Shown piece after piece: positions 22,158-25,954 of a stretch of 32,000 bases of DNA. A program made the position numbers and the translations under genes. Source of the DNA: Candidatus Heimdallarchaeota archaeon. Its GTDB lineage: Archaea > Asgardarchaeota > Heimdallarchaeia > Heimdallarchaeales > Heimdallarchaeaceae. The notes below the pieces were generated by a model. That model was not told the origin of the DNA and did not search any database. It saw nothing but the letters and a program-made list of their open reading frames with translations. The stretch's first letter is position 1, and every line of letters begins with the position of its first letter. The stretch is taken from the NCBI GenBank assembly GCA_030668875.1, contig DAOVER010000013.1:1-32000 (forward strand). The letters run 5' to 3'.

Positions 22158-23386
22158 ATAATCATTTTCCTTTTTCTATGTATAATCTGTAAAGACTTTT
22201 TGAAGGGATAATAAAAGTTTTTAGCTGACAATATATGAAAAACAGATAACCAACAACCTTTTAAGAGTTTTAAATCGGATATTTTTTCGAGTTATGATAT
22301 TCAAGAATAAGCGACAAAATACAACAAATTGGTATATGCTTCTAGTGGATACTGTCGCTTTTGGTCCTATTAGATGAACATCAGGATGACCTATCTCATA
22401 ACTCACTTATAATTCTGTCATCATTCTCCTTGGGGTCATTTCTGATATTCTATTCTGAGGTTTTATTCCATCTCTCCTATTGGAGACTCTCGAATTTTCA
22501 CCAATTAGTATCAACTTCTCTTAATAAAATGGAGAGAATATAGTATGAATTCGCAAGTTACACAAAAAGATAGTTCACAAGTGGATGTAGTTCGAAAGAA
22601 TAGTTTACTATTCATATTGTTACGACTAGATTTCATAGCTATGGTTATTCCTGTAAGTGTAAAAATATGGGAAGAAGTTGGTCTTGATTTCAGTCAAATG
22701 CTGTTCCTTCAAGGAATATTTGCTTTCTCAGTAGTTATCTTTGGAATACCAAGCGGAGCATTATCAGATACATTCAAACGCAGATATGTTCTTGCTGGAG
22801 GTTACTTGTTAATAGCAATAGCAAGTGTATGTTATGGATTAGGTAGAAGTTTTGCAGCATTTGCAATAAGTGAAGCAGTATTTGGAATGGGCTTAGCTGC
22901 AATATCAGGATCAGATACAGGATTACTGTATGACACTCTTGCATTTTATGGAAAAGAAAATAGATTTAAGGAGATTCTTGGAAAATCTTCAACTCTTGCA
23001 TTCATAGTTGCAATGGTTTCCTTACCAATTTCAGGTGTCATTGCTCTATACTCACTTAGATGGTCTCTGTTCATAATTGGTATAATCTCCGGAGTTAAAG
23101 TAGTGATAAGTTTACTAATGGTAGAGAAAGAAAGAGTGAAATCACAGAGTATTCAAAAGGCAACGAAGTCAGCACTGAAAACGTTGTACAAATCGAAATT
23201 CCTTATAGGAGTACTATTAGCTTTTATTGCTTTCTCAGTAGCTCAGAGAGTGGCTTTCTGGGCATATCAGCCAAGACTATATAGCAATGGACTAAATCCA
23301 CTGCATGTTGGATTAATCTTTGCTGGGATGAACTTAGTTGCTGCAATAGGCAGTTGGTTATTTGCAAAGATAAAGGAACACCATGA

Positions 23387-23738
23387 TTGTTTCTCCCCAT
23401 TTCTCCCACATTTCTGTTAGCTTTTTATAGGAAAGTCTAATAGAAGTACTGTCTTGAGCCAATGGCTACAGACAAAGCAGAGTCATCTGCTTACTCCCGG
23501 AGCTGGAGTGAGTACCTAAGGTCCTCAGGAACAATGTCTCCAGTAATGAGCCCCGGGGAGGAGATGAACCCGCTCACCTTCGCTAACACTGTGTGTTGGA
23601 GGTGTAATCCCAGAGCTTGAAAATCCCTTTGCTACTGCTTGTTACGATGTTACCTAAATACGTTCTTGGGTTGGGAAGAGTCCTCAAAATTATTTGCTAC
23701 TATCCTTAAGTGGGGAAAGTGGGAAAAATAACTCATGA
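23387..23738. mobile_element. 352-bp ORF-less MITE-like insertion A
   Basis: Direct repeat CATGA at 23382-23386 and 23734-23738. Imperfect 22-23 bp inverted repeats at 23387-23409 and 23710-23731. Removal restores the MFS frame. Confidence 0.85.
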
Positions 23739-23950
23739 AGAATTCTTGTTACTGGGATTCATGATCCTAGAAGTAGTGAGCATATTTGTTCTATGGTACT
23801 TTGATCCATTGATAATTCTAACTACCATGTTTGCAGTACAATTAGCATGAGGAGGAAGAGCACCAATCGTATCAACTGTGATACAGAGGAAAGCTACTTC
23901 GAATCTTAGAGCTACCATTGTCTCAATCTATTCATCAATAGGAAATCTAC

Positions 23951-24307
23951 CGTCGTCCACTGTGTGTCGAAAAGTTGACTAATCTTGCCATAGACGCTTT
24001 AACTGCCTTGGAGGAGATGTAGAGGGGAAAATCACAATATACTTTTTTTTCTACGGGTTTACATATGAATTTTAACATATAATGATAGAGATAGTGTGAT
24101 CTTCATCACTTACCTGTTTCGCAACTACACAAATGGTTGTTCCTCAGTAAACTCTCCATGAAACAGGAAGCCTAGCTAGCTCTGTGATGCTGATGCACTA
24201 ACTATAACGGAAACGTTCTTACGATTCCTTCCCCTCATCGCACGTGTAGGGGACCCACTTAAACGACGGTTAGAAAGCCTCTTGCAAGTTTAACCAAGTT
24301 TCATAAC
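23951..24307. mobile_element. 357-bp ORF-less insertion B, candidate non-autonomous IS110/IS1111-type element
   Basis: 2-nt core AC at 23949-23950 and 24306-24307. Subterminal imperfect IRs at 23969-23988 and 24284-24302 (15/19 matches with one gap). Removal restores the MFS frame. Family assignment is inference. Confidence 0.75.
24095..24302 (+). ncRNA. Putative ~200-nt structured RNA in insertion B (bridge/seek-RNA-like candidate)
   Basis: Stems GTGAT/ATCAC, CCTGTTTC/GAAACAGG, GCAACTA/TGGTTGT, CTAACT/GGTTAG and TCCCCT/AGGGGA. G-U wobbles favour the plus strand. Preceded by a T8 run (24043-24050) and an AT-rich stretch. Confidence 0.4.
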
Positions 24308-24505
24308 GTGCGTATTTCATAGTAAGTCTAGTATTTACTCTGTTCAATACTTCACTATCCGTCTCACTAATTTCAATGCTTATCCTGTCAATTGTAATAG
24401 TAATTGGCTTTGTAGTGCTAGTGTGGATAAATCACAATGGGCAACATAAAACTAAAGCATTAAATTAAAAAAAATTAAATAAAGAGGATTTATCCTCTAT
24501 TTTAC

Positions 24506-25954
24506 TTATTTTTCTGGTTCAATACCAACTTCTTTTAGTATTCTTTTCTCTGGGCGTACGAATAGAACCACAACAAGACCTGCAACCATCAACACACCAA
24601 TTGCAATCATGGCAACAGCATAAGTTTTGAAACCTATGCTAGAATAGAATATCAGAAATACTACTGCCCAAATAGCTGGTCCAATAGATGAGGATATTTT
24701 TCCGCTTAATTTTGAAAAACCAAAATATTCCCCAAATTTTTCTTTAGGAGCAAGTTCAATAATCATATATCTCTGAGCTACCCATGTTCCACCTAATGCT
24801 GGTCCTGTAAGGATGCCCATAAGAAGTACTAAAACAAACGGGAATGACCATTGAGAGAAGTCAAAGAGAGGATCAGGTACTACAACAGGTGCCCAGATGA
24901 ATATAACTAGAACAGCTATAAGCAAGGCAACAAACCATAAGGTACAAACCAAAATGAAGGTGTTTCTAGCTCCTTTTTTATCCGCAAATATACCTATAAA
25001 GTAAGTAAACATAACAGCTGATAATGTCCCAATGATGATGAATATCTGGGAGAATGCAGGATCCATGCCCATTCCATCTCTTACAAGTAAATACATTTGC
25101 ATAACAACAATATTAGCAACCTCGACAATTAAGAAATATCCAATGATAAATTTAAACATCTCTTTGTGACCTTTGATATCCCTGAAAGTCTCTCTAAGTT
25201 GTTTGAATGATCCTTTGATAAGTTCTCCAGCTGGGGGTATTTTGCTTTTTTTCTGCCTTTCTTTGACAAAGATAAATGGAATAGCAAAAACAAGGAATAT
25301 GCCCATTGCAATAAAGAATGTTTGCCACATACCGTAGTAACCATATCCTATGGGGTGGATTATCATATTTCCTGCATCTGTTCTTGAAACAGATATTTCA
25401 CTGTAAGGAGCTCCCCACATACCTTGTAGCATTAACATTACAATTAGACCTATGATGGTTCCAAAGTAACCAAAAGCTACGCCAAACCCTCCAACTTTAC
25501 CAGCATCTTTTGGAGCTGCAATAAAGGGTAACATAGGATCGTAGAATGCTAAACTCCATTGATATGCAATGTTCGCAATAACATAAAGTAACAATACCAG
25601 AGTTATACTATGAGTAAATCCTAAAAGACTAGCAAATAAAAGGATAACTCCTGTTAAGACAATAACAAATGGTTTTCTTCTGCCTGCTGTATCACTTAGA
25701 GCTCCAACTATTGGCATTCCTATCGCGATCAAGATCTGAGTAGCTGTTACAACCCACAAAAAGATAGAGTTAGCTACCGCGTATTCTAAACCTAGTTCCT
25801 TTTGACCAATAATTAGGATATACTGATTAATTATGAGGGAAACTATTACCATGGAATAAACTGTGTTTGCTAAATCATACAAACTCCATGCAAAAACATT
25901 CCATAATGAAGTTTTAGTTTCTAGTTCTACTTCTTCAGATTCTTTTGTAGACAT
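24506..25954 (-). CDS. MFS transporter, UMF1/Atg22-like family
   Basis: WSLYDLANTVYS, GALSDTAGRRKPF, FYDPMLP, GEYFGFSKLSGK; 12-TM pattern. Confidence 0.85.
   Translation of the reverse strand: MSTKESEEVELETKTSLWNVFAWSLYDLANTVYSMVIVSLIINQYILIIGQKELGLEYAVANSIFLWVVTATQILIAIGMPIVGALSDTAGRRKPFVIVLTGVILLFASLLGFTHSITLVLLLYVIANIAYQWSLAFYDPMLPFIAAPKDAGKVGGFGVAFGYFGTIIGLIVMLMLQGMWGAPYSEISVSRTDAGNMIIHPIGYGYYGMWQTFFIAMGIFLVFAIPFIFVKERQKKSKIPPAGELIKGSFKQLRETFRDIKGHKEMFKFIIGYFLIVEVANIVVMQMYLLVRDGMGMDPAFSQIFIIIGTLSAVMFTYFIGIFADKKGARNTFILVCTLWFVALLIAVLVIFIWAPVVVPDPLFDFSQWSFPFVLVLLMGILTGPALGGTWVAQRYMIIELAPKEKFGEYFGFSKLSGKISSSIGPAIWAVVFLIFYSSIGFKTYAVAMIAIGVLMVAGLVVVLFVRPEKRILKEVGIEPEK

Follow-up and report, generated by a model that had tools for sequence, protein, structure and literature searches.

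IS607-family insertion sequences that carry TnpB and its omega or right-end RNA (omega/reRNA), such as ISXfa1, the IS607 IStron of Clostridium botulinum and IS1535, are characterised by a serine recombinase TnpA with a MerR-type helix-turn-helix, by the lack of terminal inverted repeats and of a classical target duplication, by a short core within a motif of 4-5 nt that lies 5' of the guide-matching flank, and by a guide-RNA scaffold at the right end, in which the loop of stem-loop 1 forms a pseudoknot with the 3' end and the last nucleotide is fixed. The same traits appear to hold, the recombinase in its parent elements, for an element that we describe here from a stretch of 32,000 nucleotides of a Candidatus Heimdallarchaeota genome (contig DAOVER010000013.1 of assembly GCA_030668875.1, positions 1 to 32,000 of the forward strand; hereafter the window), where an insertion at 23949-24313 interrupts a gene for a transporter of the major facilitator superfamily (MFS). 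This insertion is very probably a miniature derivative, without open reading frames (ORFs), of an IS607-family element resident in the same genome, which has kept a left end, a TATA-type box, a structured RNA domain and a right-end module that we read as an omega/reRNA scaffold. It differs from the described IS607 elements in that both genes have been lost, in a core that appears to be YG, located in ACYGT, where the known elements have GG in TGGG or GGG, in its partner, a protein of 638 aa whose helical lobe is enlarged and whose RuvC-III carries a His, and in its Heimdallarchaeaceae host.

The boundaries of the insertion follow from its copies and from empty alleles, in the genome under study (G000, 92% complete) and in related genomes (other G numbers; C numbers denote contigs). 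Frame translation makes three coding segments of the MFS gene visible, and within the insertion no ORF is longer than 43 aa, the longest lying on the minus strand. An earlier note on this DNA, made from the sequence alone, had rightly recognised an ORF-less insertion in the MFS gene and had seen that removal of 357 nt keeps the reading frame; it had placed the boundaries at an AC core (AC is indeed present at 23949-23950 and 24306-24307) and had taken the adjacent GTGCG for target sequence. These boundaries have to be moved. The conserved block ends in ...CATAACGTGCGT in all 26 copies of G000 as well as in copies of other genomes, and the flanks diverge only past the T at 24313. Full-length homologues elsewhere are bounded by ACCGT...ACGTGCGT, which gives a block of 365 nt on the plus strand (23949-24313), and window-type copies at unrelated sites in at least seven other genomes (G021, G012, G011, G023, G001, G007 and G009) have identical boundaries, with ACCGT at the start and GCGT at the end. 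The empty MFS alleles of G010 and G021 read GGAAATCT-ACTGT-ATTTCATAG; the intact MFS orthologue of G019, the most distant of the empty alleles, reads ATTGT at the site and encodes ...GNLLYF...; and strain contigs from the same sediment samples, about 8% divergent, join 23950 to 24312, skipping 361 nt and leaving one T at the joint, so that the site once more reads ACTGT. These contigs come from four DNA runs of one marine-sediment study, and no RNA run was listed among the public runs that contain this DNA. Since the empty alleles read ACTGT or ATTGT and are devoid of GTGCG, the insertion has added a net 360 bp, and GTGCG is part of the element and not of its target; it precedes the point of flank divergence in every copy and is thus common to all of them.

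The right-end module of 95 nt (24219-24313, plus strand) is the part by which the family can be followed. A BLAST search against the whole assembly returned 26 copies in G000, often at contig ends, about 20 of which belong to ORF-less miniature elements. The left and right ends of the window element recur in two further types of ORF-less MITEs (transposable elements of the miniature inverted-repeat type) of about 400 bp in G000, MITE-A (at least 12 copies) and MITE-B (at least 5 copies), and the same ends are carried by elements of 2.2-2.75 kb (on C48, C87 and C37) and by a tnpA-only element (on C15). In left-end alignments the stretch at 23949-24003 (plus strand; ACCGTnnnCAACTG...AATCTTGCC) is common to the elements with tnpA and tnpB and to MITE types A and B; it is presumed to be the region bound by TnpA, in line with the subterminal TnpA-binding motifs that IS607 ends carry (10.1101/2023.11.20.567912), and left and right ends have short inverted motifs in common (ACCGT/ACGGT; AATCTTGCC/GGCAAGTTT). 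The long elements encode a TnpA of 196 aa that matches NF033518 (IS607 transposase) with 163.8 bits, the cut-off being 110, and that contains the MerR and Resolvase domains (PF00376, PF00239). In these elements the 95-nt module extends from the stop codon of the tnpB-like gene to the point of flank divergence at the right end. At no fewer than 10 loci, spread over two genera, a tnpA gene is located 2.0-2.6 kb upstream of a module and on the same strand as it. Intact tnpA genes are present in G000 on C48 and C15 and are possible sources of the recombinase in trans.

The module and the recombinase were found in the same two genera. The module was found in 23 of the 82 genomes of the class that were searched, all of them in two genera: in 21 of the 24 genomes of the genus (G000 included; 20 of the 23 others), in both genomes of the sister genus and in none of the remaining 59. 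Among the same class genomes, an IS607 tnpA above the cut-off was found only in the two genera that carry the module. The names on homologues place the lineage in the Heimdallarchaeaceae. Two other forms of the family occur in G000. At C15 30694-31483 (L002) an intact IS607 TnpA of 219 aa is followed directly by the 95-nt module, with no tnpB, which makes this locus a likely source of the recombinase in trans; at C88 71837-71921, on the minus strand, a mini-derivative of about 85 nt, without stem-loop 1, joins 47 nt from the start of a MITE-B left end to the final 45 nt of the right end.

The fold of the right-end module was tested on an alignment of 33 distinct modules, with 500 shuffles and slid partners as controls. 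The tested fold consists of stem-loop 1 (UCCCCUCA/UGAGGGGA), stem-loop 2 (AAAC..GGUUAGAC..GCC/GGC..GUUUAACC..GUUU) and a pseudoknot formed by the loop of stem-loop 1 (ACGCACG) with the terminal 7 nt (CGUGCGU). Over the whole fold, 92.9% of the cells pair and 10 pairs show compensatory changes, against 3.1±1.4 in the shuffles (none of the 500 reaches the observed number) and 0-2 with slid partners. The nexus-like stem-loop 1 lies at 24230-24253 on the plus strand (TCCCCT(CA)/(TG)AGGGGA; helix 1 is 96% paired), and its loop contains CGCACG (24239-24244), the 5' strand of the pseudoknot. The 3' strand is CGTGCGT at 24307-24313 (plus strand), identified from the alignment and the structure test, which includes the presumed right copy of the core (CG at 24311-24312) and the fixed last T (24313). 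The pseudoknot helix comprises 7 pairs, with 92% pairing in the alignment and with three compensatory pairs (G:C to A:U, A:U to U:A and C:G to U:A) and G:U intermediates, and RNAalifold independently pairs the stem-loop-1 loop with the 3' end. Stem-loop 2, at 24261-24301 on the plus strand (AAAC/GTTT, GGTTAGAA/GTTTAACC and GCC/(T)GC), shows compensatory changes in 6 of the 11 pairs of helix 4, including a series of U-A, U-G and C-G. G:U pairs are abundant, which indicates that the RNA is read from the plus strand.

In its fold the module corresponds to the architecture published for TnpB omega/reRNAs. IS605 and IS607 systems universally have a pseudoknot that links the loop of the nexus (stem-loop 1) to the 3' end of the scaffold, next to the guide on its 5' side (10.1101/2023.11.20.567912); the IS607 TnpB of ISXfa1 needs it for its activity, and the fixed right-flanking nucleotide is part of IS607 reRNA scaffolds (PMC10711439). 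The module is about 90-98% conserved across subfamilies and species, far above the level of the left end. A scan of 23000-25000 against Rfam at E<=1 returned no family, and the copies of the sister genus added no further covariation in the pseudoknot. The sister-genus modules (G040 and G041; L062-L071) have an extra small hairpin, GGGTGAAACCC, between stem-loops 1 and 2, with unchanged pseudoknot strands.

The junctions provide a view on the core dinucleotide. In one characterised IS607 element the core is GG within a TGGG target, and the transposon-adjacent motif (TAM) corresponds to the target motif (10.1101/2023.11.20.567912). Here 22 of the 23 G000 copies have ACCGT at their left junction; in the window this motif lies at 23949-23953 on the plus strand and is the counterpart of ACTGT in the empty alleles, AC (23949-23950) matching the target and CG (23951-23952) being the putative left copy of the core. 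Empty sites in G000 for insertions of other genomes have ACTGT, ACCGT/ACCAT or ACTCT directly 5' of the right flank; three such sites were usable, none of them from window-type copies, the orthologous flanks of which were mostly too divergent. Position 3 of the left end covaries with position -3 of the right end (12 C/C, 4 T/T and 1 A/C): GTGCGT goes together with ACCGT (12 copies) and GTGTGT with ACTGT (all four independent insertions of this type), mixed C/T combinations are absent, and three of these four T-type elements have the corresponding A in the loop strand of the pseudoknot. Both junctions share only the 3-nt YGT. The simplest reading is that the core is YG within an ACYGT target, which would then be TAM-like, and that the last T is the fixed right-flanking nucleotide, YG being preferred to GT by analogy with the characterised element. 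Two other assignments were rejected: an AC core requires ACTGT after the right end, where none was seen, and a TA core or 2-nt flanking direct repeats fail in the copies on C83 and C29. A full-length tnpB-bearing copy in G012 (L041, C145 around position 90646) is located inside an apparent tRNA gene, directly after ACTGT; its left end was not captured, and the empty paralogues of G000 (compared: C15:20008) read ...CCACTGT followed by GTGAGAGTGG...

The tnpB-like gene of the long elements (L001:1045-2958, that is C48 36844-38757) encodes a protein of 638 aa with an enlarged helical N-terminal half. Its AlphaFold2 model has a pLDDT (predicted local distance difference test) of 86.5, and all 50 of the top 50 Foldseek matches are Cas12f, TnpB, Cas12 or Fanzor2 structures. 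The RuvC-I Asp, the RuvC-II Glu and the Cys residues of the Zn-ribbon are invariant in the family. Source names of homologues were Heimdallarchaeota, Heimdallarchaeaceae and, in one case, Thorarchaeota. A paralogue with 39% identity is encoded at C95 34089-35831, with a similar TATA-type box ahead of it (C95:33930), which suggests that G000 also contains another lineage of the family that has diverged.

Upstream of the module, the element contains an archaeal promoter-like box, TTTTTCTACGGGTTTAcATATGAA, at 24045-24069 on the plus strand (TATA-like part 24058-24065), with one mismatch to the family consensus TTTATATA. Its part TTTTTCTACGGGTTTATATA (24045-24065 in the window) is nearly invariant in all three MITE types and occurs 23 times in G000, and in the full-length element L001 the start of the tnpB-like gene has a similar box 26-33 nt upstream of it; we consider the box a probable promoter. 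The 5' domain of the putative transcript (24094-24222, plus strand) is predicted by RNAalifold to contain a hairpin GTGAT/ATCAC (24096-24109) and a stem CCTGTTTC (24113-24120) / GAAACAGG (24160-24167) around GCAACTAC/TGGTTGT, and the alignment of eight MITEs gave 13 pairs with compensatory changes, mostly in the stems of this domain; the repeat search likewise recorded an inverted repeat here. A transcript of about 225 nt plus a guide is therefore plausible from the sequence. By analogy with the TnpB paradigm the guide would be the right flank (ATTTCATAGTAAGT..., putative guide portion 24314-24333, plus strand), which stands directly after the scaffold end and is identical to the sequence 3' of ACTGT in the empty allele.

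These elements can be combined into a possible mechanism. TnpA provided in trans, from the intact genes on C48 or C15, would excise the element as a double-stranded circle and reinsert it, with crossover at the YG dinucleotide inside the ACYGT target, which would explain why the same Y is found at both ends. The element's own promoter would give rise to an RNA of about 225 nt that continues past the right end into the adjoining sequence, and this RNA would act as an omega/reRNA with the flanking MFS sequence as guide. The TnpB-like protein, likewise in trans, could use it to recognise the empty allele (ACYGT plus flank), and this recognition would favour retention of the element, as published for the TnpB proteins of IS605 and IS607.

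IS110 elements have a core of 2 nt and circular intermediates, and the earlier note had assigned the insertion to them, as a non-autonomous IS110/IS1111-type element whose RNA loops pair with the target (CGCACGT with AC plus GTGCG) and with the circle junction (ACGACGGTTA), a DEDD recombinase acting in trans. There is a likeness to bridge RNA (seekRNA) elements of this type: a 2-nt core and a circular intermediate would be common to both, as a structured RNA and the lack of classical terminal inverted repeats appear to be. The quoted strings are exact as well (ACGACGGTTA at 24263-24272, and CGCACGT at 24239-24245 in the loop between TCCCCT at 24230-24235 and AGGGGA at 24248-24253), and the loop does covary with the terminal 7 nt. 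This partner, however, lies inside the element, GTGCG being absent from all empty alleles, and is paired as an RNA pseudoknot; the flanks of more than 40 copies are mutually unrelated, and the target flank is not complementary to the loop. The supposed circle junction, TTTCATA-AC-CGTCGT, had been built on the wrong right boundary, and 8 of its 10 matched nt already form an inverted repeat in the linear element (ACCGTCGT at 23949-23956 with ACGACGGT at 24263-24270, confirmed by a repeat search). As positions 6-8 of the left end vary (CGT, AGT, GCA, TAG, AAA) while ACGACGG stays fixed, the match between ACGACGGT and the left end does not covary, and the proposed donor loop is the 5' strand of the covarying hairpin of stem-loop 2, paired with GTTTAACC. 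The complementarity between loop and 3' end, which covaries across copies, is far beyond chance; the two supposed guide matches thus come down to base pairing within the RNA itself, together with an 8-nt inverted repeat with the left end that does not covary. In place of the longer parent with the same ends and a DEDD_Tnp_IS110 recombinase that had been expected, we found parents encoding an IS607 serine recombinase and a protein with a TnpB/Cas12 fold; PF01548, the DEDD domain of IS110 transposases, was not found in G000 (92% complete) and was present in 1 of the 24 genomes of the genus, and Rfam gave no match. Empty alleles, parent elements and covariation, by which the note had itself proposed to judge the matter, therefore correct the bridge-RNA assignment, to which we give practically no chance. 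What stands of it is a transposase-less element with a putative guide-RNA gene, which must be moved in trans, belonging to a family with a circular intermediate and a 2-nt crossover.

An origin from IS607 could also have left a dead deletion remnant, in which the right end matters only as a double-stranded DNA site for binding and recombination by TnpA and no functional RNA is made. The subterminal TnpA-binding motifs of IS607 ends (10.1101/2023.11.20.567912), the short inverted motifs common to both ends and the occurrence of a single, slightly degenerate window-type copy in G000 would fit such a remnant. We regard it as unlikely, since the compensatory changes, the U-A/U-G/C-G series and the restriction of G:U pairs to a single strand point to an RNA fold under selection, a TATA-type box and a covarying upstream RNA domain have been kept in three MITE lineages, and the module is far more conserved than the left end. 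If the RNA is functional, it might be something other than a TnpB guide, for instance a regulatory or antisense RNA or one that acts with TnpA, which would be in agreement with a 5' domain in the MITEs that is not demonstrably homologous to the tnpB 3' region, with the His in RuvC-III of the partner and with the lack of an Rfam family. The module is nevertheless found at the exact position of an omega/reRNA, immediately behind the stop codon of the tnpB-like gene and reaching to the right end, it has the family's hallmark, a pseudoknot that joins the loop of stem-loop 1 with the 3' end (PMC10711439), and clades with a RuvC-III Asp-to-His replacement are known and thought to be active (PMC10691335); such another role of the RNA is very improbable.

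The reading of the insertion as an IS607 derivative with an omega/reRNA scaffold also has to accommodate a number of observations that weigh against it. The only sequence-model matches of the 638-aa protein are a Cas12f1-like TNB and a TnpB C-terminus, both below the Pfam/NCBIfam cut-offs, and in each of the 16 homologues that were sampled, the most distant of them 41% identical, the RuvC-III motif reads VNTHxNAAxNI, with an invariant His for Asp. The window-type element is present in G000 as a single copy, in which position 5 of the TATA sequence is C and position 24283 is T where the consensus has a G that pairs in stem-loop 2. The copy on C29 combines ACAGT with GCGT, and the window copy has C at 23951 where all four available empty alleles (ACTGT or ATTGT) have T; the latter mismatch may mean either that the lineage in question carried ACCGT or that a mismatched exchange was repaired. 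Similarity between the interior of the window element (24100-24222) and the last ~155 nt of tnpB was not significant (z scores of 0.8, -0.4 and -0.3), only MITE-A reaching z 3.2. Given these scores we do not derive the 5' RNA domain from the 3' end of tnpB, and the 95-nt module is the only part demonstrably common to window-type and autonomous elements.

Other described systems help to place the family. Palindrome-associated transposable elements (PATEs) are ORF-less derivatives of IS200/IS605 that often encode omega RNAs, said to act in trans, and were described in Geobacillus stearothermophilus (Meers et al., 10.1101/2023.03.14.532601). Like PATEs, the elements found here are protein-free and multi-copy, have kept both ends and the scaffold and would depend on TnpA and TnpB in trans. 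Unlike PATEs, which have a Y1 HUH transposase, single-stranded DNA and subterminal hairpins, they descend from serine-recombinase elements with a probable double-stranded circle and have a TATA-type promoter box of their own. With the reRNAs of Fanzor2 and IS607 TnpB they share several stem-loops (two in the 95-nt module), a pseudoknot and the absorption of transposase-imposed flanking nucleotides into the scaffold. The partner protein exceeds Fanzor2 and IS607 TnpB in size; its RuvC-I and RuvC-II motifs are canonical, and its RuvC-III has a His. Our search of the literature returned no description of IS607-derived miniature elements that bear an omega RNA, nor of this Heimdallarchaeial family, which is not proof of absence.

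There is, in our estimate, an even chance that the commonest form of IS607 in one family of the Heimdallarchaeia is a 'guide-RNA transposon' of ~360-400 bp, consisting of the ends, a promoter and an omega-RNA scaffold, which outnumbers its parents and borrows a serine recombinase and a 640-aa TnpB-like protein with a RuvC-III His, and in which one nucleotide is read as left core, as right core and as part of a pseudoknot pair. If so, recombinase specificity, the TAM-like target motif and RNA structure would have to co-evolve. A coupling between recombination core, target motif and RNA fold is visible in the family. To the OMEGA/TnpB field a lineage-restricted archaeal IS607 family with ORF-less, promoter-bearing and scaffold-carrying derivatives should be of moderate interest. 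It offers a naturally occurring example of a serine-recombinase transposon in which omega RNAs may act in trans, as well as natural compensatory variants of an omega-RNA pseudoknot, and the 638-aa protein is a candidate RNA-guided enzyme from the archaeal lineage nearest to eukaryotes.

The host gene itself, an MFS transporter pseudogene at 22545-24468 on the plus strand, was reconstructed from three-frame translation, the intact orthologue of G019 and the joints in the strain contigs. Its reading frame contains a TGA nonsense codon at 23848 (QLA*GGRAP), where a T>A variant in a co-occurring strain gives AGA (Arg) and the G019 orthologue has Arg. Having been hit by the element at 23949-24313, by a MITE at 23382-23733 and by this TGA codon, it is a triple-hit pseudogene. 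The second MITE, of about 352 bp, is unrelated to the element described above; it has imperfect terminal inverted repeats (TTGTTTCTCCCC... and ...GGGGAAAGTGGGAAAAATAA) with a duplication of CATGA, and its empty allele is seen as a joint of 23381 to 23734 in contigs of runs X2-X4. The ~38 nt of its right end recur in other genomes of the genus.

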